Shown here: piece after piece, positions 10,180-39,246 of the stretch
Layout of the letters: every line of letters begins with the position of its first letter
Position numbering within the stretch: position 1 is the first letter of the stretch
DNA from: a virus
Lineage: Duplodnaviria > Heunggongvirae > Uroviricota > Caudoviricetes
Virus record (IMG/VR): IMGVR_UViG_2880389630_000005
Reading direction: 5' to 3' (one strand)
DNA length: 64,000 nucleotides
Program-made: the position numbers and the translations under genes
Notes under the pieces: generated by a model
Database searches by the model: none
Told to the model about the DNA's origin: nothing
The model's input: the letters and a program-made list of their open reading frames with translations, nothing else

Positions 10180-11528
10180 TGGGCTGGGCTGAAAACCTGC
10201 AAAACGCTTCCTTTCGTGGCGTGCAGTTTGAGGTGCTGAATACTGACGAACAAATCAGCCGCGACCATGCGGTCTATGAATACCCGTTTGTTGACGGGGC
10301 GGATTTGCACGACCTCGGACGCAAGGCGCGACCGTTCCGCATGACGGCGTTCCTGTGGGGCGATGACTATGAATATAAACTCGGGAAACTGACCGCCGCC
10401 CTGGATGAAGGCGGCGATGGTGAACTGATTCATCCGGTTTATGGCTCTGTGCCGTCGGTGATTGTGACCGGCTACAACATCCGCCATGACGCAGAAAGCC
10501 CGGACAGCTGCACCATTGACATGAGTTTTCTGGAAAACCGCACCGGTAGCGCGTTGTTCAGCACCCCGTTACCGGAGCTGTTCGCGCAACAGTTGTTTGA
10601 TGAACTGGACACTTTACAGGCGCGGTTAAGTGATTTTTTTGATGCCGTTACTGCACCTTTAAATACCGTTAACGGCATGATTAAAAAAGCCCAGACAGTG
10701 CGTGCCACACTGGTGAATACCCTGCTGTCGTTCAAAAGTGATTTTGTCTCCACTGTCGATAATATCGTGTCACTGGCAGGCGAACCCGGAAAATTTATCA
10801 ATGAACTGGCAGAGGTGCTGGAAATCCACACATCAGATGTCGGGCAACCGGTGCAGGTTCTGCAACGTGTTGATTCTGCCACCCGGACCGGGTTGGCAGG
10901 AGAGACGACCGTCGCCAGTTCTGCGACAGTGATGAACTGCTGGAATAAGGTCATCACTGATATGGATGAATTTGTTGCGTTGCCTGTTACCCTGGTCAGT
11001 GGCGATAAAGTAGCGGAGGTGGCACTTCCTGCGGATGCCTCGCCAGACGATGTGCAGGATGTGAAAGCAGTTTACGCAACACAGGCCGCATCTGAACTGG
11101 CCAGTGTTGCAATGGCGATACTGGTTGATGATGCGCAGTCAGAACAGCTTATACCGGCGGATATCGGGCGACTGGTCGGGGATGTGCGCACCCGCTTACA
11201 GGCTGCCATCACGCTGTTCCGTGAACGCTATGAAGGCGAACGCGAACGGATAACCGAAACCGCATCACCGCTGGGGCTGATGTACCCGGAAATCATTCAG
11301 AGCATGAAAAACGTGGCGGCAACCGTGCAGGATGTCGGCCTGCTGGTTCTGTCACGCCGCCCACCGCTGACGCAGAAACAGGTGCAGGCGGACAGCTGTC
11401 TGCTGTTGCTGGCGTGGCAGTGGTACGGCGATTACAGTCGTGCGGCAGAACTGCAACGCCTGAACCCGCAGTTACGTGACCCGAACAACATAACCGCCGG
11501 GGTGGTAATTAATGCCTACGCCAAATAA
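10179..11528 (+). CDS. DNA circularization protein (Mu N-like)
   Basis: 449 aa; N-terminal ASFRGVQFEV...GR...F motif matches the DNA circularization N-domain pattern. Confidence 0.7.
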   Translation: MGWAENLQNASFRGVQFEVLNTDEQISRDHAVYEYPFVDGADLHDLGRKARPFRMTAFLWGDDYEYKLGKLTAALDEGGDGELIHPVYGSVPSVIVTGYNIRHDAESPDSCTIDMSFLENRTGSALFSTPLPELFAQQLFDELDTLQARLSDFFDAVTAPLNTVNGMIKKAQTVRATLVNTLLSFKSDFVSTVDNIVSLAGEPGKFINELAEVLEIHTSDVGQPVQVLQRVDSATRTGLAGETTVASSATVMNCWNKVITDMDEFVALPVTLVSGDKVAEVALPADASPDDVQDVKAVYATQAASELASVAMAILVDDAQSEQLIPADIGRLVGDVRTRLQAAITLFRERYEGERERITETASPLGLMYPEIIQSMKNVAATVQDVGLLVLSRRPPLTQKQVQADSCLLLLAWQWYGDYSRAAELQRLNPQLRDPNNITAGVVINAYAK

Positions 11529-12723
11529 CGAAGACAAAATTAGCCTGGTCATTGCCGGAAGGTCGCATTCTGACTGGAGCAGTTATCGTATTGACAGCGA
11601 TTTCCTGAAAGCTGCCGACGGCTGGCAGCTTCAGCTGGGGCTGCCTGAAAAGGTGTTCCCGGCGGATATCGTCCGGGGCGCACAAATCCGGTTGCAGGTG
11701 GGAGATGAAACGGTGCTCAGTGGGCGCATAGACAGCGTGCGCCGTAGTGTGTCCCGTCAGAGCTGCACGCTGGCCCTGTCCGGGCGTGATGATGCCGCCA
11801 TCCTGGTGGACTGTGCCGCGCCGGTGTTCAGCGCCAACCAGCTGACGCTGGACGAGGTCATCGACAGGATAGTCAGACCACTGGGGATACAGCGCATCCG
11901 TATACAGGCGTCCGGTGTGTCACGTAATGACAAAGTTGTTATTGAGCCGGGGATGCGTGCGTGGGATGCACTGGCCAAAGCTGCCGCCGGTCGCGGCTTA
12001 TGGCCGTGGTTTGAGCCTGACGGGACGCTGGTTGTGGGTGGCCCTGACTACACCACCACGCCGGTGGATACGCTGATTCTGAAGCTGAACGGCACCGGGA
12101 ACAACGTGATGGAGCTGGACGATACCCGATCCATTAACGGCTGTTTCTCCGAACTGACGGTGCTGGCCCAGAGCCACGCCCGCCGCGCAGACAGCAAGAA
12201 ACAGGTGGCCGTGGTGCCGCTGGATATCTGGAACGAGGACGGCAGCGTGCGCACATTATCCGGGCAGGACAGCGGTAATACGGACTGTGGTCAGACAGGC
12301 ATTCATAACATGAAAGCCGTGGCCACCGACCCCACCGTGGATTATTACCGCCCGCAGATTATCACCCAGGGCGACACCAGCAATCTGGAGCAGGTGAGCT
12401 GGCGCGCAAAAAAAATGATGAGTGATGCCCGCCTGTCGGGGCTGGATATCGTCGCACTGGTTGCAGGTCATCGCACGGCAGATGGTGTTCTGTGGCAGCC
12501 CGGCCAGCGGGTGCGGATTGTCAGCGAACTCCACGGCATTGATGCCATCTTTTTCCTGATGGGGCGTGAGTTCAGCGGAGGCCGGAACGGGCAGACAACC
12601 CGGCTTCGCTTTAAGGAGGACGGCGTGTGGATACCTGACGCCTTCCCGCGCGAGAAGAAACGCCATCACCGCAGGGGCAAAAAGAAAAAAGAGGTCGCCA
12701 TTGTTAAGGTCTGGGAGAAATGA
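11512..12723 (+). CDS. baseplate hub protein (Mu P/gp44-like)
   Basis: 403 aa; conserved order after N-like gene. Confidence 0.6.
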   Translation: MPTPNNEDKISLVIAGRSHSDWSSYRIDSDFLKAADGWQLQLGLPEKVFPADIVRGAQIRLQVGDETVLSGRIDSVRRSVSRQSCTLALSGRDDAAILVDCAAPVFSANQLTLDEVIDRIVRPLGIQRIRIQASGVSRNDKVVIEPGMRAWDALAKAAAGRGLWPWFEPDGTLVVGGPDYTTTPVDTLILKLNGTGNNVMELDDTRSINGCFSELTVLAQSHARRADSKKQVAVVPLDIWNEDGSVRTLSGQDSGNTDCGQTGIHNMKAVATDPTVDYYRPQIITQGDTSNLEQVSWRAKKMMSDARLSGLDIVALVAGHRTADGVLWQPGQRVRIVSELHGIDAIFFLMGREFSGGRNGQTTRLRFKEDGVWIPDAFPREKKRHHRRGKKKKEVAIVKVWEK

Positions 12724-13373
12724 TGTGGGACAAGGTTAATCAGCGCGTACAGCAGGCACTGGCCGCCGTTCGCCAGGCATTCAGGGTGGTGATCGGTACG
12801 GTGGACAGTTCGACCAAAGTACAGCTGCTTCAGCTGAACGGGCTGGCAGGCGAACAGCTGGATGGTGCGGAGTATTTTCAGCATTACGGCCTCACCACAT
12901 CCCCGCCGCCCGGCTCAATGGGTATTGCCGTTCCGCTGAATGGCAATACCTCCCATACCGTCATCGTGGCCACAGAGCACGGCGCATATCGCCTGACGGA
13001 ACTGAAACCCGGCGAGGTGGCCCTGTATACCGACGAAGGCGCGAAAATCGTATTGAAGCGCGGGCGGATTATTGAAACAGAATGTGACGTTTACCGGGTG
13101 AAATGCAAACGCTATGAGGTTGAGGCAGAGGAGAACGCCGCATTCACGACACCGTTACTGACGGCCAGCGATAAGCTGACGGTGGAAGGTAAAATCACCG
13201 GCAACGGTGGCATGGCCATCCGTGGCGGCAAGGAATACGCCGCCACTTTTGAAGGCAACATCAACCATGTGGGTGGTGTGCTTACCTCCGTTGATGTCAC
13301 CATTAATGGCATTAAAATCGGAACACACAAACACCCAACCCCACACGGCATGTCTGACACGCCGGTTAATTAA
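12720..13373 (+). CDS. baseplate spike/assembly protein (Mu gp45-like)
   Basis: 217 aa; overlapping start (ATGA); position in baseplate cluster. Confidence 0.6.
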   Translation: MMWDKVNQRVQQALAAVRQAFRVVIGTVDSSTKVQLLQLNGLAGEQLDGAEYFQHYGLTTSPPPGSMGIAVPLNGNTSHTVIVATEHGAYRLTELKPGEVALYTDEGAKIVLKRGRIIETECDVYRVKCKRYEVEAEENAAFTTPLLTASDKLTVEGKITGNGGMAIRGGKEYAATFEGNINHVGGVLTSVDVTINGIKIGTHKHPTPHGMSDTPVN

Positions 13374-13426
13374 GTGCTGAACACCCTCACCTGATTCTGA
13401 CCTGTCCATGCTGCCAGACTGGCGGC

Positions 13427-13777
13427 ATGGACCAGACGATTTCACCTGCAACCGGCGACTACGAACGCCGCCGGATTTATACACTCCATAACGCGGTTTA
13501 TCTGCGACTGGCGACACCGCTTGGCAGTTACTGGGCGGATGCGTTGCTGGGGTCACGCCTGCACGAACTGAAGCGGGAAAAAGACGTTTCCCGTGTTCAC
13601 AGGCTGGCGGCGCAGTATGCCAGCCAGGCACTTCAGCCCCTGCTTGATGACGGGCGGGCAAAATCCATTACTGTTGACACGAAACCGGGTCAGCGCGGCT
13701 GGCTGTTGCTGTTAATCACCGTCACGGATAACGCGGGCACACCGCAGACATTTGAACACCCTGTGAGGATTATGTAA
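13427..13777 (+). CDS. baseplate protein (Mu gp46-like)
   Basis: 116 aa small baseplate component upstream of J-like gene. Confidence 0.55.
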   Translation: MDQTISPATGDYERRRIYTLHNAVYLRLATPLGSYWADALLGSRLHELKREKDVSRVHRLAAQYASQALQPLLDDGRAKSITVDTKPGQRGWLLLLITVTDNAGTPQTFEHPVRIM

Positions 13778-14856
13778 TGCCGTTTCCTGTTCCGGGCGTT
13801 GCTGAAAACACAGAACGCCAGCTACGTGATATCGCTAACGCCCTGCCGGGAGAAACCATCGACACCAGCGCTGACAGCGATTACCGCATTCGTGCAAATG
13901 CCGTATCCGGTGTGGCTGACGGGCTTTATATGCATCAGGGGTGGATACTCCGTCAGGTGTTTCCTGACACGGCAGACCCTGAATATCTGGAGCTGCACTG
14001 CCGCACGCGCAATGTTTTTCGTAAAAAAGCGACCGCCTCATCCGGTCCGGTGGTGATTACCGGCACTCCCGGTAAGACACTGCCAGCCGGTGCGGAAATT
14101 CGTGGTGAAGGTGTCAGCGTGTCCACCACAGCAGACTGCACCATCGGCCACGAAGGCAGCGCAGAGGTGACGGTAAAAAGCACTGCCACGGGGGCACTGA
14201 CGAATGCATCCACGACGCAGACGGCAACGCTGGTCAGTCCGCCGGAAGGCATCAACAGCACGGTGACGATTAAATCCCTGACCGGTGGAACAGACAGGGA
14301 AAGCAACGCCGACCTGCTGGCGCGTTATCTGGACATTCTGCGCAGGCCGCCCGCTGGCGGTAATAAATATGATTACAAACGCTGGGCGCTGGAAGTGGAT
14401 GGCGTTACCTCGGCATATGTGGAGCCATTACGTCGTGGACTGGGGACGGTTGATGTGGCCATTACGTCAGCCAATGACCTTCCCTCGCAGGAACTGATTA
14501 ATGCCGTGCTGGCACATATTGAGGAAGTCTGCCCGGTCACAGCAAAGGACACGATGGTACTGGCCCCGACGAAAAAAGCCGTTGATTTCGTTGTCCGGGT
14601 AAAAACCAGCGGCCTGACCGTTGAGCAGATAAAACCACAGATAACTGAAGTTATCACGGATTTTATGAACCGACTGGAGCCGGGGCAGGAATTAATTATT
14701 TCACAACTGGAAACTCAGATTTCATTAATTTCTGGCGTCAGTGACCGGCGGATTATTATGCCGTCAGATAATGTAAAAGCAGTTGTCAATGAATCCACAT
14801 GGGAGTGGCTGCGTCCGGGGAGTATTGATATCCAGCCATTTCCCCGGGAGAGTTAA
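13777..14856 (+). CDS. baseplate J-like wedge protein (Mu gp47-like)
   Basis: 359 aa; position and size of baseplate J family. Confidence 0.65.
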   Translation: MPFPVPGVAENTERQLRDIANALPGETIDTSADSDYRIRANAVSGVADGLYMHQGWILRQVFPDTADPEYLELHCRTRNVFRKKATASSGPVVITGTPGKTLPAGAEIRGEGVSVSTTADCTIGHEGSAEVTVKSTATGALTNASTTQTATLVSPPEGINSTVTIKSLTGGTDRESNADLLARYLDILRRPPAGGNKYDYKRWALEVDGVTSAYVEPLRRGLGTVDVAITSANDLPSQELINAVLAHIEEVCPVTAKDTMVLAPTKKAVDFVVRVKTSGLTVEQIKPQITEVITDFMNRLEPGQELIISQLETQISLISGVSDRRIIMPSDNVKAVVNESTWEWLRPGSIDIQPFPRES

Positions 14857-14859
14857 TAC

Positions 14860-15432
14860 ATGAATACGGTTGATTTATTTCGTGCCATGTTACCACCGGT
14901 CAGCTATGACCCGAACGGGAAATATATTTCAACAGAACTGAACGCAGAAGCAGCCATTATGGATGAAGTAAAAGCGTCAGCTGCACGAGTGCTTGCATCT
15001 GTCACACCATTTTACGCATCCATGACACTGTCTGACTGGGAACGAGTGTATGAAGTAATACCCCGCGATGGTGCCACACAGCAGGAACGCCGAGAAAATA
15101 TTCTTATAAAGATGGCTGCAACTGGTGGGTTATCTATCCCTTATTTTAAACAACTTGCAGCCAGCCTCGGGTACACCATAACAATTACTGAACTCCATCC
15201 ATTTAGAACGGGGGTAAACCGATGTGGTGATCGTCTCTATATAACAGATGCCCGATGGATTTGGCAGGTTAATGTCACAGGAAGCAAAACGCCAGCTTAC
15301 AGATTCAGAACCGGAGTATCTGCTGCCGGGGAACCGTTACTTTCCTTTGGTGCCCCTGTACTGGAAGAAACATTTAAAGAGCTTAAACCCGCTTTTACTT
15401 ATTGCCATTTCACATATAAGGAGGAGCAGTAA
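14860..15432 (+). CDS. tail protein (Mu gp48-like)
   Basis: 190 aa between baseplate J-like gene and tail fiber. Confidence 0.55.
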
Positions 15433-17810
15433 TGCAAAATCTGATGCCCCCGATAAATACACCGGATCAATTGTTTCATGATGGTGACCCCACTCAGGGG
15501 ATAGAAGGAACCATCGTAACTGCTGATTATTTAAACAATCAGCAGGGGGCAATCCGTGATTTACAGCAGGAACTCCTTAATGTTCTTGGTAGTGTACATA
15601 TTCAACCTGCCCCCCAAAAAACGGATCAGCTACTTACCGCGCTTCGTGCGCTGCTGTTAAGCCGCAAGAATCCGTTTGGCGATATCAAATCGGATGGCAC
15701 GGTAGAACGCGCTCTTGAAAATCTGGGGTTACAGGATGTAAAAGCTGGTTCATTGAACAATCTGTACACTAACCATTCCCGTAGTGTCTTAATGGAATTG
15801 CCGTTATTATTCCCGGACTACGATACGGTGCTGGCTGCTCAGTCTGGTGCGGAATATATGTATCCACAGGGATTTGTGGTGACAGGAGAAAAAATCTATC
15901 TGAGTTATACCGTTGAGCCAAAGCAGACACGGAACGTTATAGTTCAGTACACAACATCCGGCGAATATGAGGGATATTATTATGTCGATAATGGAGGTCG
16001 TGGCGTTGTCAGCGAAGGCCTTGTGGTGACAACGGATTACGGTGGATTACGTTTGTTCATGTCAGGAGAAAATGGATTACTGAAACAGTTTTCGCTTGAT
16101 GGGGCAATTTCTGGTTCAGTATTGCCGTTAATTGATGAACATGATGTCGGTGTTTACAACCAGTTCAGCTATCGTAAAAACCGCTGGGTGGTTGAACAGT
16201 CAGCGCCGGAAGTGGGAGGCCTGATCACCCGCACAGTATTTGCGGTGTATGATTTTCAGTTTCGTCGGACAGGGACATTCACATTACCGTTGCATGATTC
16301 CGGATATATCACGGAAAGCACAGACAGCTATGCAAGACGCTTCACAAAACGTCAGGGAATTGCTGTGGGAGACGATTATATTGCCTGTTCTTATGGTGGC
16401 TATTTTAATACCGGGGCATCAGCCGGATTTAACCAGTTTCAGGGGGTTAAGGTCTTTTCTCCGGATGGAGTAAAGCAGCAGGAATCCATTCTTCATCCCC
16501 AAAAAATGATAGATGTGCTTACCAGGCAGGGTTTTACACCTTCGCGCATTGAGAACGAAGGAATTTGTATTTCTGACGACGGCGGCAGTATATATTCGCT
16601 TTATATCTTTCTGGAGCGTGGGTTACCACAGGCTTATCAGAAAGGAATTGTTCTGATGAAAGAGTTCAGTACTGGCAGAGATGCTATTGATTTTCGTCAG
16701 GCAGCCTGGTTGTACACGGGGTTTGATGTGTCTCATGCCAGTATTGGAACATTTCCCCGTAGTGCCCAGGGGTTGGTAAACCCGGTGTTGGGGACGGTAT
16801 TCACATCCCTGTCTGAAATTCTGGCATATATGCGTTCTGTGAGTCAGAAATGGTTTTGTCTGCATACAACCACGACACCGATTAAAGATCTGAGTGGAAA
16901 TGACATTCCTGCTGACAATTATGTGTTCATCAAGAATGCTAATAACCAGACATTCTATATAACGCAGGAGTCAGCTGAAGGTGGAATAAAATATAAAGCT
17001 GTCACTACAGACAGCGGAGAATATGGTTTTCAGCGACAAAGAGAGGCAATCTGGTCCAATGTTATCACCATCGCACAAAAGAGCGATGGTGAGGATCAGT
17101 TTAATCGTATTATCGCTGCCTCGAAAAGTGGTTCGGGTAAAAATCAGGATAAAATACTGGTAGTTGACCAACAGGCATCAGAGGGGAATAACACGCTGGT
17201 AATTGGCGGTGGTTCATCTGTGTTCAGGTCAGCGACAGTGATTGATTTTGCAACGAATCAGGATGCAAATGCCACAGGAGGAGAAAAGAGATGGCGCATA
17301 GATTCATCAGGAAATCTCCGCCCTTATACAGATAATACGTATTCGATCGGTTATGCCTCATGGCGACCCGCACAGGTTTATTCAGCTACGGGAAGTATCA
17401 GTACATCAGACCGGACTCATAAACAGGACGAAACAATTCTGTCGGATGCAGAAAAAAGGGTTGCCAGAAAGCTGCTCGGGTATATCTGTCGGTTCCGTTT
17501 CAGGGATGCAGTGTCCAGCAAAGGGAACGCAGCCAGATGGCATGTAGGAGTGATTGCTCAGGACGTACAGAAGGTCTTCTCCGAGGAAGGGCTGGACGCT
17601 TTTGATTACGGTATTTTGTGTCGTGATGAATATCCGGCGGAATATGAAGTGGTTTACGGGACTCGTATGGAGCTTGGTTCTGACGGACTCCTTACAATGG
17701 AAGAATACGATACCGGAGAGCGCAAGCTGGTCAGGGAGGCTGGTGAAATAATGTCTGTAAGGAATGATGAGCTGCATTATTTCATGCTGGCATCGCTGTC
17801 TGGCCAGTGA
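15432..17810 (+). CDS. tail fiber protein with C-terminal intramolecular chaperone domain
   Basis: 792 aa; conserved fiber N-terminus; C-terminal about 130 aa resemble the peptidase S74-type auto-cleaving chaperone domain. Confidence 0.7.
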
Positions 17811-17821
17811 ATAATATTAAT

Positions 17822-17846
17822 GTAAGGAGCGATATAAGCTCCTTAC
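17822..17846 (+). terminator. hairpin downstream of tail fiber gene
   Basis: GTAAGGAGC-N7-GCTCCTTAC inverted repeat just after stop; weak T-tract. Confidence 0.4.
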
Positions 17847-17926
17847 ATCATGCATTTTATGCTGCGATTATGCGTTCTCCTGTTGTTTGTTGCTGAGAGT
17901 GAAACACCGGAAACATAACTAATAAG

Positions 17927-17984
17927 TTAGCGCCCAATTCTGGGCTTTTTGGCTGAGATCTCCCCGCCCAGAATTGGGCGCTAA
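17927..17984. repeat. 19-bp perfect inverted repeat with 20-bp spacer
   Basis: TTAGCGCCCAATTCTGGGC ... GCCCAGAATTGGGCGCTAA; lies in the junction between Mu-like module and CP4-like genes. Confidence 0.6.
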
Positions 17985-18055
17985 TTAGCCCAGAAAAAAA
18001 CGCGAAGTTACACTGGTACCGTCAGCATCATGCTGACAGCAACTGGTATGAAAAC

Positions 18056-18583
18056 GTGTATGAGGACTTCAGGGCGGTCTGTGGCATTTTCGGAATTGAC
18101 CTCCGCCAGCGCGTTTTCCGGCTCAGCAACGGCAGGTTTATGGAAGAGGCGTGCATCTGGTTCAGCGGATTCTGCAGCCAGGGGGACGGAGCCTGTTTTG
18201 AAGGACGCTGGCACTGGCAGCCAGCAACAGCCAGAAGGCTCCGGGAGTATGCCACACAGGACCATGAACTCCATCGTATCGCGGATGCCCTGCAGGCGGT
18301 GCAGAAACGTAACTTCTGGCAACTGCAGGCTGAAATCCACCACCGGGGACGTTACTGCCATCCGTACAGCATGGATATCACTGTTACCCGGAACAGTCCG
18401 ACTGGTCAGGCTATGACAGCCGATGCGGAAGCCGCTGTCAGCGAAGCCCTGCGCGACCTGGCCTTCTGGTTGTACCGTCAGCTGGAAAACGAGTACGACA
18501 GGCTGACCTCTGATGCCGCTGTGGATGAGGCCCTTCTCATCAACGAATACACCTTCACCGAAGCCGGTCTGCGCGCCGGCTGA
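18056..18583 (+). CDS. hypothetical CP4-type prophage protein, possibly 5'-truncated
   Basis: 175 aa from a GTG; frame open upstream with no ATG; directly precedes the cbeA-like gene. Confidence 0.35.
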   Translation: MYEDFRAVCGIFGIDLRQRVFRLSNGRFMEEACIWFSGFCSQGDGACFEGRWHWQPATARRLREYATQDHELHRIADALQAVQKRNFWQLQAEIHHRGRYCHPYSMDITVTRNSPTGQAMTADAEAAVSEALRDLAFWLYRQLENEYDRLTSDAAVDEALLINEYTFTEAGLRAG

Positions 18584-18598
18584 CCTGAGGACTTTATC

Positions 18599-18967
18599 GT
18601 GTCAGACAAACTCCATGAGACAAATTATCCCGACGACCATAACGACCGCCTCTGGTGGGGACTGCCCTGCACCGTGACGCCCTGTTTCGGGGCACGTCTG
18701 GTGCAGGAGGGTAACCGGTTGCATTACCTTGCCGACCGCGCCGGTATCAGAGGCCTGTTCAGCGATGCAGATGCGTACCACCTGGACCAGGCCTTTCCGC
18801 TGCTGATGAAACAACTGGAACTCATGCTCACCAGCGGTGAACTGAATCCCCGCCATCAGCATACCGTCACGCTGTATGCAAAAGGGCTGACCTGCAAAGC
18901 CGATACCCTCAGCAGTTGTGGTTACGTTTATCTGGCTGTTTATCCGACGCCCGAAATGAAAAATTAA
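18599..18967 (+). CDS. cbeA: CbeA/YeeU-family antitoxin (type IV TA)
   Basis: 122 aa; near-identical to remembered YeeU sequence (WWGLPCTVTPCFGARLVQEGNRLHYLADRAG...). Confidence 0.85.
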   Translation: MSDKLHETNYPDDHNDRLWWGLPCTVTPCFGARLVQEGNRLHYLADRAGIRGLFSDADAYHLDQAFPLLMKQLELMLTSGELNPRHQHTVTLYAKGLTCKADTLSSCGYVYLAVYPTPEMKN

Positions 18968-19055
18968 CTCTCCAGAATAGCCTTCTGCTACGGCCTGGTG
19001 TTTTCACCACGCCACTTTTCCATTTTTATATCTGCATATCAGGAAAATCTTCAGT

Positions 19056-19430
19056 ATGAAAACATTACCTGTATTACCCGGGCAGGCGGCCAGTTCTCGC
19101 CCGTCTCCTGTTGAAATCTGGCAGATACTGCTGTCCCGACTGCTGGACCAGCACTATGGCCTCACACTGAATGACACACCGTTTGCCGATGAACGTGTGA
19201 TTGAGCAGCATATTGAGGCAGGCATTTCACTGTGTGATGCGGTGAACTTTCTCGTGGAAAAATACGCGCTGGTGCGTACCGACCAGCCGGGATTCAGCGC
19301 CTGTACCCGCTCTCAGTTAATAAACAGCATCGATATCCTCCGGGCTCGCAGGGCGACCGGCCTGATGACCAGCGACAATTACAGAACGGTAAATAACATT
19401 ACCCTGGGTAAGTATCCGGAGGCGAAATGA
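19056..19430 (+). CDS. cbtA: CbtA/YeeV-family toxin (type IV TA)
   Basis: 124 aa; near-identical to remembered YeeV sequence (MKTLPVLPGQAASSRPSPVEIWQILLSRLLDQHYGLTLNDTPFADERV...). Confidence 0.85.
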   Translation: MKTLPVLPGQAASSRPSPVEIWQILLSRLLDQHYGLTLNDTPFADERVIEQHIEAGISLCDAVNFLVEKYALVRTDQPGFSACTRSQLINSIDILRARRATGLMTSDNYRTVNNITLGKYPEAK

Positions 19431-19621
19431 TGACACTGGAAGCCGACAGCGTTAACGTACAGGCGCTGGATATGGGGCACATTGTCGTTGACATTGATGG
19501 TGTTAATATCACTGAACTGATTAATAAGGCCGCTGAAAACGGTTATTCACTCCGCGTGGTGGATGACCGTGACTCTACCGAAACACCGGCAACTTATGCC
19601 AGCCCTCACCAGTTGCTGTAA
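19427..19621 (+). CDS. yeeW: YeeW-like small protein
   Basis: 64 aa overlapping the cbtA stop, as in CP4-44. Confidence 0.7.
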   Translation: MMTLEADSVNVQALDMGHIVVDIDGVNITELINKAAENGYSLRVVDDRDSTETPATYASPHQLL

Positions 19622-20061
19622 GACAATGCAGTGATACAGGGTATAGTGCCATTAACCACAGAAACAGCACTGTTGTCCTGTATTAAGCAGGCAAGAGAAG
19701 ATGTCCTTACCCTGCGCCATCTGCAGCTTCTGCACCAGAACCGGTGAATCTCACTCAACAGGCTTCATTTCCCCTGACGCCAGCCTGAATACAGCTGGCG
19801 TTTTCATTTATAAACAGAAAGGAAAACCGATAATAATGGAATGGACGCCCCGACCATGAAGCAACGGTAGGATATTACTGATAAACCTTCCAGTGGAGGT
19901 GCGTTATGGCCGTTTTAACGATTAGCATTGACCTGACAAAAAATGAATTCCAAATCCACGGTCTGGGTAGGAACAGAAAAATCTAAGCTCAGAAAACGGA
20001 TTAAAGTAAGCGTCAACGGAGCACCGTATTGACGCTTATTTATTGGTGAGAACTACGTTCC

Positions 20062-20418
20062 ATGGCAGGAGTTCGTCAACACGGTTGGAGGGCCATTCCG
20101 GCAGTATGCTCAGAATATGGCGCAGATACGCTTCCGGATCGATACCGTTCAGACGGCAGGTGCCTGCTTTTCCGGCAACAAGCAGGAATCTCAGCGCTGA
20201 AGCAGGAATTAGAGGTAAAAACGCCCTACCGGGCCATGAATCACCCGGTCATTGGAGTAGTAACCAAAGCAGATTTAGCCAGCATGGAACAAATATCTTT
20301 GGTGACAAGTTGGTTACGGGAAGCTGGAGCGCACAACGTGTTAGTAACCAGTGCAGTTAATAACAATGGAGTTACAGAACTTTTTGCCTTGCTGCATACA
20401 GAAGAAGGCTGTTGTTAA
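20062..20418 (+). pseudogene. yoeF-like gene fragment (GTPase-like C-terminal remnant)
   Basis: 118-aa ORF with no clear RBS, in the position of CP4-44 pseudogene remnants between yeeW and yeeX. Confidence 0.3.
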
Positions 20419-20470
20419 TTTCGATTGGTTCTCAGATGAGAATGATGACGGTGATACACAGATAAGAATC

Positions 20471-20499
20471 AATGAGCAATGAGGGTTGCCGGGCAACCC
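20471..20499. terminator. perfect palindromic hairpin downstream of yeeX
   Basis: CAATGAGGGTTGCC/GGCAACCCTCATTG directly after the yeeX stop (- strand). Confidence 0.5.
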
Positions 20500-20518
20500 T
20501 CATTGAATAAAACGGGAA

Positions 20519-20848
20519 TTACTTCGCTTCGCCGTTTTTCATTTCGCCCATAGCTTTCAGCTTTTTGGAGATATCGCGGCGTTCTTTGGAGAGCTCGGCA
20601 TTTTTGATGATGTAATCGTCAACGCGATCTTCATAGTCACCTTTCATGCTGGCGATGATGCCCTGGATTGCTTCAACGCTCATCCCTGGCTTGATGTAAT
20701 CGCTCAGGTTGTCCAGCAACAGGACGCGCTTCTGGTTGTCACGGATCTTTTTCTCAACGTCCTGAATTTCACGTTGCAGTTTGTTCTTACGACGGAACAG
20801 ACGAACAAATTCCAGTACGTCCTGGAATGAAGGCTTGGTAGTTTCCAT
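20519..20848 (-). CDS. yeeX: UPF0265/DUF496 protein YeeX
   Basis: Starts at internal Met ([41 protein letters not shown]...), 109 aa; matches remembered YeeX. Confidence 0.85.
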
Positions 20849-21019
20849 TTTTATACCCCTGATAATGTGAGAGTCGGATTCGTTTAAGCAACCGCTATTC
20901 GTTAGGGCCAACATTACTCATAGCTGCCGCAGATGACAATGCTTTTATCCCTTTTCACTATCATACCCTTTATCCTTGCTGAATCGAAGCAGCAGCAAGA
21001 TGATTCTGAAGTTCAGGAA

Positions 21020-22078
21020 TTATTTGCGCAAGGCCCGGCAAATCAGATTCGATAGCAACTCAAGCTGATGTGCCGTTTCCATGTTCAGCCACACATAACC
21101 ATAGATTGGTGTTTCCAAGACTTTCAGGTCATGGTGGTTATCGAGCAACTGACGCAGCTCTTCCACAGCATCGTTCAATTTTTCCGTATTGGCAAAAACC
21201 GGCTGCGGATTACCTTCGTACAGCGCATGAACAAGGCTCAGCAGTATTTGCTGCATCATGTGCTGGGTATCACGAAGTTTTTGCGCGTTCAATAACACGA
21301 AATGGCTGGGGCGCGTGGCCCAGTATGCATTGATTTGCAACTCCAGCATACAAACCAGATTGCGATTAATGGTCTGGATACCTTCATATATCGATTTGGG
21401 AATACGGGTTTCTTTGCTGGCGGGCGCAATCAGCCCACGCATTTTCACGGCATCGGTCAGGAGTTTTTGTAGATGGCTTTCCAGACGTGGGCGTTCGAGT
21501 AAGTTCGGTGAGAATGCAGATTGATAGACCCGATTATACTCGGTCAGACTTTTCGCCAGTTGAATGCGCCAGTGGATGAACGCCCGTTGTGGCCAGATAC
21601 CGGTAAACAACATTGCCAGTAAAGAGCCGAGGATCACATCGCCGCTTCGCCATAACGCCGTATCAATTTCACCTGTCGGGGAACCCACAACAATTGCCAG
21701 CGTCACCCCAATCAATAATCCTTGATACGGTTTCTTGCCCAGCGCCAGCCAACCGCAAAGAAACATCGCCGCCGCGCACCAGACTAACATCAGCGGTAAC
21801 GAAATTAACTCCAGTTGCAGAGCGATAAGACCTAAAATCGAACCCAACACCGTACCGCCAATACGTTCGAAGGCACGAGGGACAACGTTCCCCCAGAACG
21901 AGATTGGCCCCATAATCACCACCATGGTGACCAGCGGCCAGGTGCTTTCCGGGATAGTAAACAGGCGGATAATGAGAAAAGTGAGCAGGAATGCCAGCGC
22001 GACCCGAGTACCATGCACAATGCGGTAATGGCGGTATACCCGGATTTCAAACGGGCTTAATGACTTATCGGCACGCAC
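21020..22078 (-). CDS. yeeA: inner membrane protein YeeA
   Basis: Multi-pass membrane protein; GTG start (VRADKSLSPFEIRVYRHYRIVHG...) gives about 352 aa. Confidence 0.75.
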   Translation of the reverse strand: MRADKSLSPFEIRVYRHYRIVHGTRVALAFLLTFLIIRLFTIPESTWPLVTMVVIMGPISFWGNVVPRAFERIGGTVLGSILGLIALQLELISLPLMLVWCAAAMFLCGWLALGKKPYQGLLIGVTLAIVVGSPTGEIDTALWRSGDVILGSLLAMLFTGIWPQRAFIHWRIQLAKSLTEYNRVYQSAFSPNLLERPRLESHLQKLLTDAVKMRGLIAPASKETRIPKSIYEGIQTINRNLVCMLELQINAYWATRPSHFVLLNAQKLRDTQHMMQQILLSLVHALYEGNPQPVFANTEKLNDAVEELRQLLDNHHDLKVLETPIYGYVWLNMETAHQLELLSNLICRALRK

Positions 22079-22275
22079 GCAGAAACTCCGTAATGAAGAT
22101 GAAAAGCGCTCATAACACATCTGTCGGCCAGAAGGCGCGCCTCTGAGTTATCCGACGGACATACCGGGAACAGTGTAATTTCCCGGCAGGAGCGAAAAAT
22201 TTGAAAGGCGCATCTTACTCTTTTCGCTTTCAAAAAAAGAGTGGTCTTCGCGTTAACACACCGCCCTGAGATGAA

Positions 22276-22749
22276 TTAGTGATGTTTTGGCTGCACCGCA
22301 ACATACATTTCGATATCCCAGTACCCATCTTCCGCGCCATTGTTCAAGTAAACCTCGAAGCAGGGCTTTGGTAACATTTCATAAGCACTGTCCTGCAAGA
22401 GGCTATTAAAGAACTGATACCAGGGTTTAGCAAAATCATCACCGACTACACGAGCCACCGCCACCGCATACTGACCACCTGAAATTTCTGTCAGAATGAC
22501 GCCCTCACTGTTTTCGGGGAGCGTAAAGTTATTCGGTACCGTCACGACGGTGTCGCAGCGTAATTTTTCGGCGGGTGTTTCATCTGGATTGTCGTAATAG
22601 ACAGCAACCCACTCCTTCGGCACAATATTTTTGCTATCTATCCACATCATCAACTGCTCAAAACCTTTCTTTACCATCTGCTCCCACGGGCCAACAAGAT
22701 GGAAACCTGCAACGGTACGTTTATCTTCCTGCTTAATCTCGTAGTTCAT
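22276..22749 (-). CDS. sbmC: DNA gyrase inhibitor SbmC (GyrI)
   Basis: 157 aa; matches remembered SbmC; LexA box upstream. Confidence 0.9.
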
Positions 22750-22765
22750 GACGCCTCCACTAACA

Positions 22766-22781
22766 CTGTTTTTATATACAG
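22766..22781. promoter_or_regulatory. LexA (SOS) box upstream of sbmC
   Basis: CTGTTTTTATATACAG fits CTGT-N8-ACAG, about 20 bp upstream of sbmC start. Confidence 0.6.
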
Positions 22782-22867
22782 TATAGTTGCAATATTAAAA
22801 CCACAAGGAATGAGTGTTGATTATGCGAGCAGACTCGCACTCCTGCCAGTCTGCTGCAAAAGAAAGG

Positions 22868-24040
22868 TCAGGCCTTATGGTGGAAATAATCACTCAGGCG
22901 GGAAAACATGCTGCCTTCCCCGACAGATTCCAGGGTAACCAGCGGCCAGTGCGCCACCTGTTTATCACGGTCGTAAAGTTCAATTTCCCCTACCCGCTGA
23001 TGGGCGCTAATTGGCGCGGTGAGTTCTTTACCATCAAGGGTATATTTGGCTTTGATATGTGGAATTTCGGCTTTCGGTAGCACCATCCAGAACTCTTGTT
23101 CCGTTCCCAGGGCGATATTTTCTTTATCACCATACCAGATGCGTTCCGTACCGACCTTTTTCCCACGGTGCAAAATTTGCACCGTAGTAAAGTTTTGTTG
23201 CCCCCAACGCAGTAATTTTCTTGCCTCTTCCTCACGACCTTTTGCGCTGTCAGCCCCCATTACCACTGCAATGAGGCGACGCTGCCCGTCTACAGCCGAA
23301 GCAATAAGATTAAACCCGGCACCAGAAGTATGGCCCGTTTTCAGGCCGTCAACATTCATGGTTTTATCCCACAATAACCCGTTACGGTTTTGCTGGGTGA
23401 TACCGTTCCAGGTGAGGCTTTTCTCACTGTACATATGATAAAACTCGGGCTCGCCGTGGATGATAGCGCGAGAAAGCACGGCTAAATCATAAGCCGAGCT
23501 ATGCTGGCCAGGTGCATCCAGACCATGCACTGTTTCAAAATGCGTATCCTTGAGATGCAGCTTCTCGGCATAGTTGTTCATCATTTCAACAAACTGCCGT
23601 TGCCCACCGGCAATATAGTCAGCCAGAGCAACACAAGCGTCATTTCCGGAATCCACAATTAAACCACGGCTTAAATCACGTACCGATACGCGATCGCCCT
23701 CTTTCAAAAACATCAGTGAAGAACCGACAAACACCGGATTATCTTTCGCCCACGCATCACGCCCCACGGTGACAATATCGTCTGGCGTAATGCGATGACT
23801 ATCGATAGCGCGATCCACGACATAGCCCGTCATCAGCTTTGTCAGGCTGGCGGGATTGCGCTGTTGATGCTCATTACCCGCGGTGAGAATCTGACCGGTG
23901 GTGTAATCCATCAATACCCAGGACCCGGCATGAATCTCTGGAGGCTGAGGTGAAAAAGGAATGTTTTCCGCCGCAAAACCAGACGATAAATTAAAAACGA
24001 ACAAAGAAGCAGCAATAATAAGACGGCGTTTCAACAGCAA
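22868..24040 (-). CDS. dacD: D-alanyl-D-alanine carboxypeptidase DacD (PBP6b)
   Basis: 390 aa with signal peptide; SxxK (SLTK), SGN and KTG motifs; matches remembered DacD. Confidence 0.9.
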   Translation of the reverse strand: MLLKRRLIIAASLFVFNLSSGFAAENIPFSPQPPEIHAGSWVLMDYTTGQILTAGNEHQQRNPASLTKLMTGYVVDRAIDSHRITPDDIVTVGRDAWAKDNPVFVGSSLMFLKEGDRVSVRDLSRGLIVDSGNDACVALADYIAGGQRQFVEMMNNYAEKLHLKDTHFETVHGLDAPGQHSSAYDLAVLSRAIIHGEPEFYHMYSEKSLTWNGITQQNRNGLLWDKTMNVDGLKTGHTSGAGFNLIASAVDGQRRLIAVVMGADSAKGREEEARKLLRWGQQNFTTVQILHRGKKVGTERIWYGDKENIALGTEQEFWMVLPKAEIPHIKAKYTLDGKELTAPISAHQRVGEIELYDRDKQVAHWPLVTLESVGEGSMFSRLSDYFHHKA

Positions 24041-24827
24041 ACCCTCAGGTGTTTCAAATAGCTGTTCTTTTTACGGAAATACTTATGAACTGGCTGGAAT
24101 AAAGTGCAAGAAAATGTGACTACTATCTCATTTTTATCTGACATGATCTGTTGCCACTCGCTGCCAAATTGTCGCGCTAAAGCTGATTAGCACGGTGATA
24201 TTTGATACTCTGGCAGACAGCAGAAATAACGGATTTAACCTAATGATGAATGACGGTAAGCAACAATCTACCTTTTTGTTTCACGATTACGCGCAACACC
24301 CCTGAGAACCGCCATGAACAAGGGTTTCATGATTTGTGATTTTAGTTTGGTACGCAATTTGGTACACAACACAATTTTCACTTCAGCGGGTAGTCATCAA
24401 ACTCACCATAACGAGCATCGTTGATGATGTATGTGATCACCACAAATATCACATCTGGACTAGTTCCGTCTTCATGCGCAGGTATTTGTTCACGCCTCCC
24501 TTTCTGCAAATCCTAAAGATGAGATTTTGGGGTTTTGGGATATCTTTTTATCCTCAGTTCTCTATCCATTCTACAAAGCAGTAATGAACCATCACCGTGT
24601 GATAGTGAGGCATCCGCTACGTTAAGCGCAGAGAAATGATGCAGTGGTGGTCGGACTGGATTGATGAAAAGGTGTAGCAACCAACATTGCTATATCTCAG
24701 ATAGCACAAAGCCTTGCAATCCAGTGCAAAGCTTTGTGTGTCTCAGTTTTTATAAATTCTTAAGCAAGAATTATAGTTATAACTATTATGTAAATTTTAT
24801 GATATATATTGTATTTAAATGCTGGTT

Positions 24828-26909
24828 TTACTTATTAACCCAACCTGTAGCATTTGTGTTGCTTTCCTTTATATAAAGTACTGTATTTCCACCTCCATCA
24901 GAACGAGTGTAAATAGAACCAACTGGTGCTCCAACTCCGCTAGATGTTGGGTTGCCTTCTTGCCCAAATATCACAAGTGAGCTTTTATCTGTAGCTTGAT
25001 TATTCTGTGTGGCTGATGTTCCAAATGAAACATTCCCTATAAATGACACGCTCTTACAGCTTGATGTAGCAAATATACCAACTGATGGTTTATTATTTGC
25101 AACGCCATCACGAATTTGATTTGAACTAACAATTACATTTTCTGCACCAGAGTCAATTCGTATGCCATTATGGTTATTATCTGCGGTAGAAACCCCAACT
25201 ATAATGTTTGATTGAATAGTAACATTTGAATATTTACCATTAATATGAATCCCATGCAGGGAAATATTTCTAAAGATGTTGCTAGAAATTACAACATCAT
25301 GCGAAAAACCAGACCCTATAAATTCTTCTGCATTAGTTTCAGAAATCCATAAAGAACTTGATGTTCCTGAATCGTATTCATTATTAGAGATGATTGATTT
25401 GTTAATAAAATCACCTTTGAAAAAACCGATTCCGCCTCTTGCTGTGTTTCCAGTGACAGTTAGTCCTGAAACCCATCTTGCGTCTACTGCATATGATTGA
25501 GACTCTGTAATAAACATGGAATTGTTGGATATTACGATATCTTCATGAAATGCATCTGATGTATCTGTATATGGATATGTAGGTGCAGCCAGAAGAATCG
25601 GGGATCTAACGCCTTCAAAATAATTGCCAACAATGCGCCCCCTCCTTGCCCCCTGTGGTTTTGATGATGATGGGAATGGGGTTACATGAACTCCTCGCGC
25701 GGTACTGTTATAGAAAGAGCATCCGCTAACCACCCAATCATACCAGTTGAAAACCCTTACCCCGGCAAAGAGCATTCCATCGAACCTGCAGTTTATGACC
25801 CTTATATTTTTGTCCTGATTCCCATATGAATTAGCATGGTTCCCAACCCCCACCCCCCACGCCCCAAACCCAGTGGTGGTATTTTGTGGATTTGAACCAA
25901 AATAACAGTTATCAACAAGAACATTGATGTTTGGGTAATAATCGCCAAGAGATTCAATCCCCGGATCTAACTGGATCGCTTCTGAATAATTTCGGTTGGA
26001 AAGTGGTTTGAAGCCAAGAAACTTACAGTCTCTTATAATCACCCCTTGCCCGTCAGCAATATCTACAGCATGAAAATCGACTACATCAAGAAATGTTACT
26101 CCAACAATAGAAAGATTTCTTGGTGAGGAGGCTGCAATGATGTCAAAAGGATCTGTAGGGTGGTCTTGTCCTCCTCCATCTAGTATTCCGCCTGTTATTT
26201 TAATGTTAGTGCCAGTATTAGGGCTTATTCTCAGCATGACGTCATTAGAAAAATTACGTTTAATGGTTACGCCATCAGTCATCTTTAGGTGAGTATTTGA
26301 TTTTATTTGCAACTCAGAAAGCAAAGTATATATGCCTGGTAGTGAAAACTGTAGTGTACCTCCTCCAATGCTATATATTGCATCTAGCGCAAATTGCAGA
26401 GCTACTTTATTGTCAGCATTCGATGGATGAGCACCGAAGTCAAGAACATCAATGATTTGTTGGTTCTTTTGGTGTTGAGTTTGATTTGCTGCTCCGGGGA
26501 ATGGTTGTTTCACCGACACTAATTCATCCCCATCACCATCATCAAAGGATGCCAACCTCTTCTGAAACTGATCAGGGTCATACTTCAGCACATTAGGAAA
26601 ATAAAACTGCTGCGCACCATATGCATCATAAACAGCCATAGAATGGCCCTGTACAGTAACGAATTTGGCAATCTGTCCGTTATATACAGGGTAACCAGCA
26701 GCGTTAATGATGATTGGTTGCGAAACAGGAACGTGAGAACCATCTTCGTTCTCTACATAAACTTGAATCTGGTTTTCAGGATTTACCGGGTCAGTGTCAA
26801 TTTTACCGATATAAATTTTGCCATTGGCTACGGCTTTAAAAGAACGCGCCATAGTGAAGAGTTGCGAAGGCATACTCACTACAACATTGGCATTTATCGA
26901 ATCTGTCAT
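24828..26909 (-). CDS. P22-like tailspike protein
   Basis: 693 aa; N-terminal ~115 aa closely match the P22 gp9 head-binding domain ([22 protein letters not shown]...VLKYDPDQ); divergent beta-helix C-terminus. Confidence 0.85.
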
Positions 26910-27076
26910 TTAATTTGCTCCAGATACAAGGAATCGCCGCAGCATGGCTACGGTGAGTTTTTTGTGATAAAACAACTTTTTCGGAAGTTATTTTGTTCGC
27001 TTTTCGACCTACACTTTTTGTGTAGGTCTCTCCTTCAAGCTCATTGCCTAAGTGTGGCTACGGTGAATTTTGGGCA

Positions 27077-27100
27077 TAAAAAACCCAGCCGAAGCTGGGT
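27077..27100 (-). terminator. rho-independent terminator downstream of ant
   Basis: On - strand ACCCAGCTTCGGCTGGGT followed by TTTTTT. Confidence 0.55.
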
Positions 27101-27118
27101 CGTTGCGTTGGTTATCTG

Positions 27119-28021
27119 TCAGTAGTTATGTACTGAAGGAGGTAATTCTTTATTCTTAAGTCTCATCCATGCGGAAAGATTCGTTGGTCCGTCTGGCTCA
27201 TTGATATCAACATCTCGTGTGTGATTGATTAAAACGTCTCTCGCCATTCCGATAACATACGAGAACTCATGACCGTAGTCGTAGCATCTGCCGGAATAGT
27301 TCGATTGAATTTGTTTTAATGCCGGATACAGTTCGCGGAATAATGCCTGTGAACGGTTAGCATAATCCCATAGCCATACAAGGCTGTTTGCTTCTTTTGC
27401 GGAAAGCTCGTTGGTTTTCTTCTCTTGTTTGCCGATGAATTCGCCTTCAAGCACTACCCTGTGGATGTACTCTACGGCTTGCGGTATCTGAGACGCATCA
27501 AGCTCTTCAATACTTTCCACATTGAAACGCTGATGAATCATTGCATAAGCTTCTGGGTACATTAGATGCTTTTTGCTGACCAGCATATTTACAGCATCAC
27601 GAAGCGGAGTCCTGTCATCAACAGATGTTTTCTTACGTGCATTTTCTGCCTTTCCCTTTGTCCAGTAGTCATGCAGCACGGTAAAGCATTCTTCCTGGTA
27701 CTGAATCAGTTTATCGCGGATGTCATCACGAACTTTCTCAGGGTTGATGCTGAACAGCCATCCATTTAACTTCTTCAAAGGAAGGCAGAGTAGCTTACGA
27801 AGCTTTCCATCAGCAGCAACCATATTCATATGAATACAGTTGAACTTATCTAGTTGTTTCATAAGTTTTTGTTGCTGAGTACCCCAGCTCATTCCGAGGT
27901 TTTCAACGATTGGCTTCATCGCAACATATGCAACTCCGGCAGCCATGGCGGTGATAATTTGCTGACCGTTGAATGGCACGTAAGAGGTGTTCACTGCTTC
28001 TAAAATTGCTATACTATTCAT
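27119..28021 (-). CDS. ant: antirepressor Ant
   Basis: About 300 aa from ATG ([21 protein letters not shown]...); ORF track's 28051 is an upstream TTG; position downstream of arc. Confidence 0.7.
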
Positions 28022-28083
28022 GTTGGTTTTTCTCCAAGGATTTACCGACAACCGAAGCCCTGACTGTTACCGCAGTTGGGGCT

Positions 28084-28308
28084 TCAACTTTTCACTTCTT
28101 TAAAGTGCCTACCTTCTACAGTTGCTCTGAGATAAAAATTCTTATCTTTACCGTTTAGTGCTTCCCAAGCATCAACAATGCACTTATTACAGATGTGGAC
28201 TTCTCGATAACCAATAGCTTTCCTGTCAATATTAGTGAACATAACAGCTTCTTTATCTGTCAATGTGGATGCATGACAGAAGTCGCAATCTATATAAGAT
28301 ACCTTCAT
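28084..28308 (-). CDS. Cys-rich small protein (putative zinc ribbon) in arc-ant operon
   Basis: 74 aa with CDFC...CNKC; sits between arc and ant, overlapping the arc stop. Confidence 0.4.
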   Translation of the reverse strand: MKVSYIDCDFCHASTLTDKEAVMFTNIDRKAIGYREVHICNKCIVDAWEALNGKDKNFYLRATVEGRHFKEVKS

Positions 28309-28463
28309 ACCGTTATCCCCTCTCTCTTCAGGCTGTCCATCACTCGCTTGTAAATCTCAGAGTTAACAGATCGCCCGTTCTCTTCCGCCACCTTACGCAC
28401 CAAATCCAATACTTCTTTAGGCCACCGCAAATTGAACTGCGGCATTTTGCTCATTCCTTTCAT
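28305..28463 (-). CDS. arc: Arc repressor
   Basis: 52 aa from internal Met; MKGMSKMPQFNLRWPKEVLDLVRKVAEENGRSVNSEIYKRVM matches P22 Arc. Confidence 0.85.
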   Translation of the reverse strand: MKGMSKMPQFNLRWPKEVLDLVRKVAEENGRSVNSEIYKRVMDSLKREGITV

Positions 28464-28479
28464 ATTCACCTCACAATAT

Positions 28480-28530
28480 AGGTCCACCGTGGACCTATTG
28501 AGAATATAGTAGAGTGCTTCTATCATGTCA
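28480..28530. promoter_or_regulatory. immI control region: Mnt operator and Arc operator, divergent Pant/Pmnt
   Basis: 17-bp palindrome AGGTCCACCGTGGACCT (Mnt operator-like) and ATAGTAGAGTGCTTCTATCAT (Arc operator-like) between arc and mnt. Confidence 0.7.
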
Positions 28531-28553
28531 ATACACTAACTTGGGGTGATGGC

Positions 28554-28808
28554 ATGGCTAGAGACGATCCGCACTTTAACTTCCGTATGCCTTTGGAAGT
28601 AAGAGAAAAATTGAAATTAAGAGCAGAGGCTAACGGAAGGTCAATGAACTCTGAGTTATTACAAATCGTTCAGGATGCTCTCTCAAAGCCATCATCAATT
28701 GTAGGCTATCGAGACGAAGCTGAGCGAGTCGCGGATGAGCAATCTAACGTTGTTAAGAAGATGGTCTTTGAAACGCTGAAAAATATTTATAGCAAAAGTA
28801 AGTTATAG
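28554..28808 (+). CDS. mnt: Mnt repressor
   Basis: 84 aa; MARDDPHFNFRMP...GRSMNSELLQIVQDALSKP matches P22 Mnt. Confidence 0.85.
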   Translation: MARDDPHFNFRMPLEVREKLKLRAEANGRSMNSELLQIVQDALSKPSSIVGYRDEAERVADEQSNVVKKMVFETLKNIYSKSKL

Positions 28809-28857
28809 GCTTATGACGTACAGTTAACCATATCGATATTGGCTCGCGTGATGACAA

Positions 28858-30116: not shown

Positions 30117-30243
30117 AATATAATTTTTATGCATCCGTGATAATTACATCCGTCACGGATACATAAAGCTATAGCCAAAAGTGGACAAACCTTTATCTCA
30201 CTCCAAACCATCTGGTATCCTGCGTAAAACTAAGGAGGTTGGT

Positions 30244-30666: not shown

Positions 30667-30690
30667 ACGAATCCATCCGTGGATTACTAA

Positions 30691-33346: not shown

Positions 33347-34494
<1,148 letters not shown>

Positions 34495-36029: not shown

Positions 36030-36031
36030 GG

Positions 36032-38606: not shown

Positions 38607-38615
38607 TTATTCACC

Positions 38616-39077: not shown

Positions 39078-39246
39078 CTTCTTCCGCCTTAGCCACTTTT
39101 TGCTTCGTTGCGGTTTCTTCAGGAGTTTTTACCCAGCCTTTTTTCAGGTGAGATTTAACTTCTTCGTCATCAACAATGATGTAATCGACAGCAAACTGAC
39201 CACAGGTGATCATGTTGCCCGGCTTATAGAGCATTGTTCGTGCCAT
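39058..39246 (-). CDS. small hypothetical protein
   Basis: About 62 aa from internal ATG; acidic C-terminus; between coat and gp4-like genes. Confidence 0.3.
   Translation of the reverse strand: MARTMLYKPGNMITCGQFAVDYIIVDDEEVKSHLKKGWVKTPEETATKQKVAKAEEDGENEG

Follow-up and report, generated by a model that had tools for sequence, protein, structure and literature searches.

An intact cbeA-cbtA-yeeW module beside a Mu-like prophage in a CP4-44-type island: an island probably split rather than truncated

Has the genomic island that carries this toxin-antitoxin module been cut short by the phage that lies next to it, or has it only been divided in two? In the window, by which we mean the whole 64,000-nucleotide stretch of DNA analysed here, three genes resembling yeeU, yeeV and yeeW lie beside the end of a run of Mu-like phage genes. 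An earlier note on this DNA held that the usual upstream partners of these genes, yeeR, yeeS and yeeT, are missing, and that the Mu-like genes and a 175-aa open reading frame (ORF) have replaced them, which suggested to it that the island had been truncated by the phage insertion or by a deletion.

The toxin-antitoxin module and its locus

A yeeU/yeeV/yeeW-like module does occupy positions 18599-19621, as the earlier note described: ORFs at these positions, Pfam matches and identity to K-12 all attest to it, and the Pfam scores of all three ORFs are far over the family cut-offs. The first gene, cbeA (yeeU), encodes an intact type IV antitoxin of 122 aa (18599-18967, + strand; CbeA_antitoxin, PF06154, E 7.1e-53). 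It lies directly upstream of the intact toxin gene cbtA (yeeV), of 124 aa and on the same strand (19056-19430; CbtA_toxin, PF06755, E 7.8e-58, 193.8 bits against a cut-off of 25, with model positions 1-112 of 112 covered), and the 88-nt spacer between the two is equal to that in K-12. The yeeW-like ORF that follows on the + strand (64 aa, 19427-19621; DUF5983_N, PF25638, E 2e-29) carries only the N-terminal domain of DUF5983, and its start overlaps the cbtA stop codon by 4 nt. Compared with the proteins of K-12 CP4-44, the window CbtA is identical at 123 of 124 residues, the sole change being R105S, CbeA at 113 of 122 and YeeW at all 64. The window CbeA also matches the YeeU structure 2H28 (E 3e-76) and the YfjZ structures 2JN7 and 2EA9 (E about 1e-41), and in genomes with identical DNA the gene is annotated as cbeA. 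By every sequence criterion the pair belongs to the CbtA/CbeA family. The differences from K-12 are unevenly spread, with eight of the nine CbeA changes falling within the first 18 residues (window 18599-18655) and the remaining antitoxin, the toxin and YeeW being almost invariant; the closest relative, strain AREA_R485, has yet another CbeA allele (WP_059338454.1, compared with WP_001280918.1 in JJ1887).

An antitoxin that counteracts its toxin without touching it makes a type IV toxin-antitoxin system, and Masuda et al. are said to have found in 2012 that CbeA bundles FtsZ and MreB filaments instead of binding the toxin. In published work on the near-identical K-12 proteins, the toxins are neutralised by CbeA and its paralogues. 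CbtA binds FtsZ and MreB independently, such that division and elongation are both blocked; substitutions at R15 abolish the binding of MreB, and those at F65 the binding of FtsZ (PMC5624674). Both residues are retained in the translated sequence of the window CbtA. From the 99% identity of the two toxins, the window toxin would be expected to cause growth arrest and a change of cell shape, with rescue by an antitoxin that does not bind it. The finding is in this respect an ordinary one and already known in kind, the pair being among the best-known type IV systems and essentially the K-12/ST131 allele. The proteins YkfI/YafW of CP4-6 and YpjF/YfjZ of CP4-57 fall into the same Pfam families as the window pair, but they are paralogues at other loci. 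Such paralogous loci share a neighbourhood of antirestriction, RadC/JAB, DUF987, antitoxin and toxin genes (PMC5371832).

The chromosomal position is set by what lies downstream. The core genes tmaR/yeeX, yeeA, sbmC and dacD follow at 20519-24034 on the - strand, assigned from their ORFs, Pfam and the gene order of JJ1887 and K-12, and these neighbours place the locus at the CP4-44 site. Between the module and the core genes is the decayed right border of the island (19655-20418), which we mapped from the JJ1887 annotation with an offset of +6011. It comprises a DUF957 fragment (19655-19747), a transposase fragment on the - strand (20036-20173) and a yoeF/EutP-PduV fragment (20236-20418), the last being also recognised through PF10662 on a 118-aa ORF. 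K-12 has the same border remnants, yoeD and yoeF, so that in the window, as in K-12 CP4-44, a right border with yoeD/yoeF-type remnants adjoins tmaR/yeeX. Overall, the window and K-12 are 98.5% identical over 18588-24291.

The two islands thus share both their chromosomal locus and the order cbeA-cbtA-yeeW, and they differ in what stands upstream. In K-12, yeeT lies 73 bp upstream of cbeA, with flu-yeeR-yeeS further up, whereas the window-type island has an extra gene, encoding a protein of 214 aa, between yeeT and cbeA. The contiguity of flu-yeeR-yeeS-yeeT with cbeA that defines the K-12 element is absent, none of it being found in the window. Judged from its sequence and surroundings, the island is of CP4-44 type, at the same locus as the K-12 element and distinct from it, and cbeA-cbtA-yeeW is the intact module of that locus and, by position, orthologous to the K-12 system.

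The right end of the prophage

The Mu-like neighbours of the module were also correctly recognised at the outset, Pfam giving Baseplate_J, Phage_Mu_Gp48 and a 792-aa Peptidase_S74 tail fibre upstream of it. The genes of positions 1-18012 (+ strand) encode head, tail sheath, tape measure, baseplate and tail fibre, and identity to a prophage of strain S13 shows that they make up the right-hand, late half of a Mu-like transposable prophage 35.8 kb long. All 18,013 bp of window 1-18013 agree (100.000% identity) with positions 25276-43288 of the S13 sequence L002. The complete prophage there measures 35,818 bp (L002 7470-43287), and cirA lies in two pieces on either side of it. Over their right 18 kb the two prophages are therefore the same, whereas their insertion sites are different. 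Among the products of the S13 copy are a transposase and head, tail and baseplate proteins of Mu type, an AAA ATPase, Mor and two HTH proteins, of which the one at the left end is divergently oriented; the transposase and ATPase are seen in S13, and the corresponding left half of the window's prophage lies outside the window. Window position 1 corresponds to L002 25276, so that 17,806 bp of the prophage precede it, and the left flank of the phage is consequently out of view.

The tail-fibre gene (15432-17810, + strand), which is the last of the prophage, was taken from the ORF list and its Peptidase_S74 match. The exact 792-aa protein occurs in 251 blocks of public assemblies, at many chromosomal sites, and the gene is present at >=99% identity in 57 of 5,426 complete E. 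coli genomes (~1%); some genomes carry two copies of the Mu-like phage. The look-up of the tail fibre gave ten other insertion sites, and the present site is not among them. Phage_Mu_Gp45 and GP46 are matched by identical proteins in loci L004-L013. Among deposited phages, the prophage has no nucleotide-level relative beyond ~100 bp of tail-fibre sequence. In RefSeq the S13 tail fibre (L002 40707-43085) is broken up into a partial pseudogene and an independent CDS of 326 aa, although the DNA is identical to that of the window. Because the tail fibre is a single 792-aa ORF in the window and a single gene in the 251 assembly blocks, the S13 call looks like an annotation quirk with no real disruption behind it.

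Where exactly does the phage stop? Read directly, the right end at 17931-18012 (+ strand) carries inverted copies of the motif GCCCAGAATTGGGCGCT / TTCTGGGC and closes with the terminus ...CGCGAAGTTACA. This motif is found again at the left end in S13, and its copies are likely to be transposase-binding sites. The termini of the prophage family read TGTGGGGTAGTG...CGCGAAGTTACA, with a TTCTGGGCG motif repeated near both ends. The right terminus, ...GTTACA, ends in the terminal CA at 18012, and S13, Ec55, SCAID WND1 and E2348/69 show the left end, TGTGGGG...; the Mu-like prophages of S13, R4 and AVS0151 (in cirA) and of the EPEC strain E2348/69 (in eutC) have the same TG...CA termini as the window's. 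Beyond ...CGCGAAGTTACA, a different host sequence follows in each of L004, L005 and L007-L013, which makes at least nine, and cirA follows in L002 and L006. A single terminus succeeded by many different host sequences implies that 18012 is the true right end of a TG...CA transposable phage.

Four genomes could be compared at both phage ends, and in all four the target sequence is found on both sides of the phage with no deletion. In S13 the target is cirA, with a 4-bp duplication CATT (the intact cirA was checked in K-12); in Ec55 it is ypdF, with CGCT; in SCAID WND1 it is a gene of another prophage, with ACTT; and in E2348/69 it is eutC, with CACT. The observation covers L002 7461-7480 and 43276-43295, L020-L023, and L036 at 436 and 36171. 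By analogy with these four, CTGG at 18013-18016 is predicted to be the right copy of a 4-bp target-site duplication in the window. Phage Mu duplicates 5 bp of its target. A Mu-like 5-bp duplication was considered for the present family too, and it fits S13, Ec55 and E2348/69 only with a mismatch; the family appears to make a 4-bp duplication, compared with the 5 bp of Mu.

The interrupted island gene

The DNA to the right of the terminus belongs to the island. Positions 18013-18583 (+ strand) are 100% identical to JJ1887 L001 12002-12572 and represent nucleotides 75-645 of the 214-aa gene that has its place between yeeT and cbeA, the full gene in JJ1887 being the CDS at L001 11928-12572 (WP_000086752.1). 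In the window the gene is broken after nucleotide 74, with loss of its start codon and first 25 codons. The break reads ...GAAGTTACA|CTGGTACCG, with the phage terminus as ...CGCGAAGTTACA|CTGGTACCG, and the uninterrupted sequence of JJ1887 at the same point is ...GCCCGCGA|CTGGTACCG. The 175-aa ORF (18056-18583, + strand), which on the ORF list is the longest left in this remnant, starts at an internal GTG that has no recognisable ribosome-binding site. What it represents is the 3' portion of a gene native to the island, the 214-aa gene, and the idea that it had replaced the partners of the toxin-antitoxin pair must be given up; the lesson for annotation is that this ORF should be labelled a gene remnant.

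The 214-aa gene is absent from K-12 CP4-44, homology to K-12 beginning at window 18588, and its uninterrupted junction with yeeT is found in 1,933 of the 5,426 complete E. coli genomes. The protein has no family or relative in Pfam, NCBIfam or the PDB, and its sole family match, in PHROGs, is phrog_5162, of unknown function. An exact-product look-up of the 175-aa remnant protein gave no record, and the records of a 147-aa alternative-start product all come from strains that lack the phage and have the 214-aa gene divided into 47 and 147 aa. Such a division into 47-aa and 147-aa ORFs is seen in many draft genomes, and for this reason the gene seems to be decaying. Some NCBI records name fragments of it 'antitoxin of toxin-antitoxin stability system', a name for which we found no basis. 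In one database protein (P0003) the first 27 residues of the 214-aa protein are fused to a CbeA-like C-terminus, implying a deletion in some strain.

The break was placed among E. coli islands by a megablast search of window 17300-21000 against the 5,426 complete genomes. Matches to 18012-21000, the best at 100% identity, were obtained in 402 genomes, largely of ST131 type, and none of them reaches further left; homology to uninterrupted islands begins at 18012/18013, and that junction is spanned in none of the 5,426. This is the synteny comparison that the earlier note had proposed, with the same arrangement in phage-free strains as the outcome that would speak against a role for the phage. 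Its absence from all 5,426 genomes supports the phage insertion and refutes a natural arrangement.

Two of the 402 genomes were examined more closely. Between the window and JJ1887 there is not one mismatch in the 6,280 bp of 18012-24291 (100% identity), and identity to AREA_R485, which has a downstream P22-like prophage in common with the window, is 99.92%; the closest relatives that share this prophage carry an uninterrupted island. Both JJ1887 and AREA_R485 continue past the break point into the 214-aa gene, yeeT, a JAB (yeeS-like) gene and an antirestriction gene, the order in JJ1887 being DUF932, a hypothetical gene, antirestriction, JAB (yeeS-like), yeeT, the 214-aa gene (WP_000086752.1), cbeA, cbtA and yeeW. 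The islands of these ST131 strains thus run uninterrupted from DUF932 through the antirestriction, JAB, yeeT and 214-aa genes to cbeA, whereas in the window the 214-aa gene is interrupted by the phage.

Split or truncated

What, then, has become of the upstream partners? A tblastn search found no homologue of yeeR, yeeS/JAB, yeeT, the antirestriction gene or DUF932 within the 64-kb window, and to this extent the earlier statement that yeeR, yeeS and yeeT are missing is correct. Their absence is nevertheless an effect of the window's edge: because the window ends inside the prophage, the lack of yeeS, yeeT and the other genes says nothing of the genome from which it came. For yeeR the case is clearer still. 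No yeeR was found in the annotated stretch upstream of cbeA in JJ1887 (~12 kb) or in AREA_R485 (~29 kb), nor was flu in the upstream stretches examined in the two strains, and since the relatives have no yeeR there, its absence from the window means nothing and should not be read as a loss.

The most economical account, and one that we consider very probable, is that a simple insertion of a Mu-like phage, in an ST131-like E. coli, has parted the cbeA-cbtA-yeeW module, itself intact and lying at the right border of a CP4-44-type island, from the rest of that island. The 35.8-kb phage would have entered the 214-aa gene, which stands between yeeT and cbeA, after nucleotide 74, with the right end of the phage at 18012. 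The first 74(+4) nt of that gene, followed outwards by yeeT, the JAB/yeeS-like gene, the antirestriction gene and the remaining island genes, would then be found at the left end of the phage, whose flank is expected about 17.8 kb before window position 1. There, the phage left end TGTGGGGTAGTGATC... would directly follow ...GAAAAAGCCCGCGACTGG, with yeeT further upstream, such that the flank would read ...GCCCGCGACTGG. Written in full, the predicted left junction is ...yeeT - ATGAGCAGAATT...GAAAAAGCCCGCGACTGG|TGTGGGGTAGTGATCAATTCTGGGCGG..., with the first 78 nt of the gene present and CTGG duplicated. The analysis establishes what the genes are, where exactly the phage ends and that the island is intact in relatives; three steps are ones that we infer, namely that the left half of the island persists, that 4 bp are duplicated at the window's own site, and any effect on expression. 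The clean splits in all four genomes compared at both ends lead us to expect the upstream island genes beyond window position 1, and with the closest relatives carrying a complete island we hold with considerable assurance that the island is split rather than truncated. An insertion did take place, as the earlier note had suggested, and the break falls exactly at the phage terminus; the loss of upstream genes that it attached to this insertion is without support, and until the left flank is read the island is best described as prophage-interrupted.

The strongest competitor is true truncation, in which island DNA on the left side was deleted or inverted, during replicative transposition or by recombination afterwards, so that the toxin-antitoxin module became an orphan at the phage end. 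Mu-type elements can cause adjacent deletions and inversions, and with the left junction outside the window such a change beside the insertion keeps a small probability. No upstream island gene lies anywhere in the window, and the left junction was recovered from none of the collections searched. Pattern searches for the predicted left junction (with a variable gap, so that a duplication of any length would be caught) and for the observed right junction each gave zero exact matches in genome_contigs, metagenome_contigs and viral_contigs, a result that is uninformative; an X-padded query of the predicted 36-aa left-junction fusion against 5.8 billion proteins returned only N-terminal fragments of the normal gene, the phage fusion peptide being absent from all of them. 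Against truncation, the window ends inside the prophage, so that the absence of upstream genes carries no information; the four relatives examined at both ends are all clean splits with a target duplication; and the right junction falls precisely at the terminal CA, as a primary insertion predicts. We regard truncation as unlikely. Somewhat less likely again is its more specific form, an insertion accompanied by a Mu-mediated deletion or rearrangement that has left cbeA-cbtA an orphan 0.6-1.4 kb from the phage right end, off its normal operon. Were it true, the orphan pair would lie inside the stretch of host DNA that Mu-type headful packaging from this copy would carry. That the window itself might be phage-particle DNA with a packaged host flank was also considered, and is ruled out by the host DNA, which runs 46 kb rightward.

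A mis-joined contig, in which an assembler linked the prophage end to the island, is far less probable than either of these. The junction is unique with respect to the 5,426 complete genomes, and the occurrence of two phage copies in some genomes provides repeats of the kind that can confuse assemblers. A mis-join would, however, be expected within repeated sequence, whereas here the switch falls at the exact last base of the element, and the two sides of the junction have zero homology, which is a signature of transposition; a switch at that base with no sequence shared across it makes mis-assembly unlikely. Least credible of all, to the point where it can be set aside, is a natural ancestral arrangement of cbeA-cbtA with a short upstream ORF unrelated to the phage, for although K-12 CP4-44 lacks the 214-aa gene and the upstream content of these islands therefore varies, the break occurs in no phage-free genome, the 402 relatives stop matching there, the two relatives examined run on into a full 214-aa gene and yeeT, and the remnant has no start codon or ribosome-binding region of its own.

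If the phage has simply inserted, as we prefer to think, what might follow for the toxin-antitoxin pair? In K-12, published work found its transcription to be weak, and the pair is not autoregulated; at the homologous CP4-6 locus the upstream genes apparently share one operon with the pair (PMC5371832). The insertion would probably cut cbeA-cbtA off from transcription that enters through the upstream island genes. On the phage side, a hairpin of 11-13 bp (17820-17848, + strand), terminator-like on both strands by consensus match, sits just 3' of the tail-fibre stop codon, and this strong hairpin may limit read-through from phage late transcription. A promoter consensus scan of 18013-18598, next to cbeA, gave 2 sites against 1.9 expected by chance, and with no promoter above chance level near cbeA we can only infer what happens to transcription there. 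Should cbeA-cbtA have been uncoupled in this way from transcription upstream, the strain would offer a natural test of the pair's expression, a minor point. That a transposable phage should insert into an island gene that is not essential is to be expected, and such events are strain-specific; the specific site, although new, is trivial.

Two further features of the surrounding DNA deserve mention. The last 94 bp before the phage terminus (17918-18011) are matched by megablast in five of the tail-fibre genomes among the matches listed, 25 others among these stop matching at 17917, and E2348/69 has a diverged version of the stretch with its last ~30 bases unchanged; the DNA that separates the tail-fibre terminator from the transposase sites at the terminus seems to be variable. 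Downstream, a P22/lambdoid-type prophage with tailspike and antirepressor occupies window 24292-64000, beginning 48 nt into sbcB, and identity to JJ1887 and K-12 ends at its start in that gene. A sar antisense RNA (28022-28089, 97 bits) and, further on, a lambda cIII thermoregulator element (58719-58777, 88 bits) were recognised within it, and its first 10 kb are found at 100% identity in 18 complete ST131-type genomes. The two prophages lie only ~6 kb apart, flanking the toxin-antitoxin module and the four core genes.
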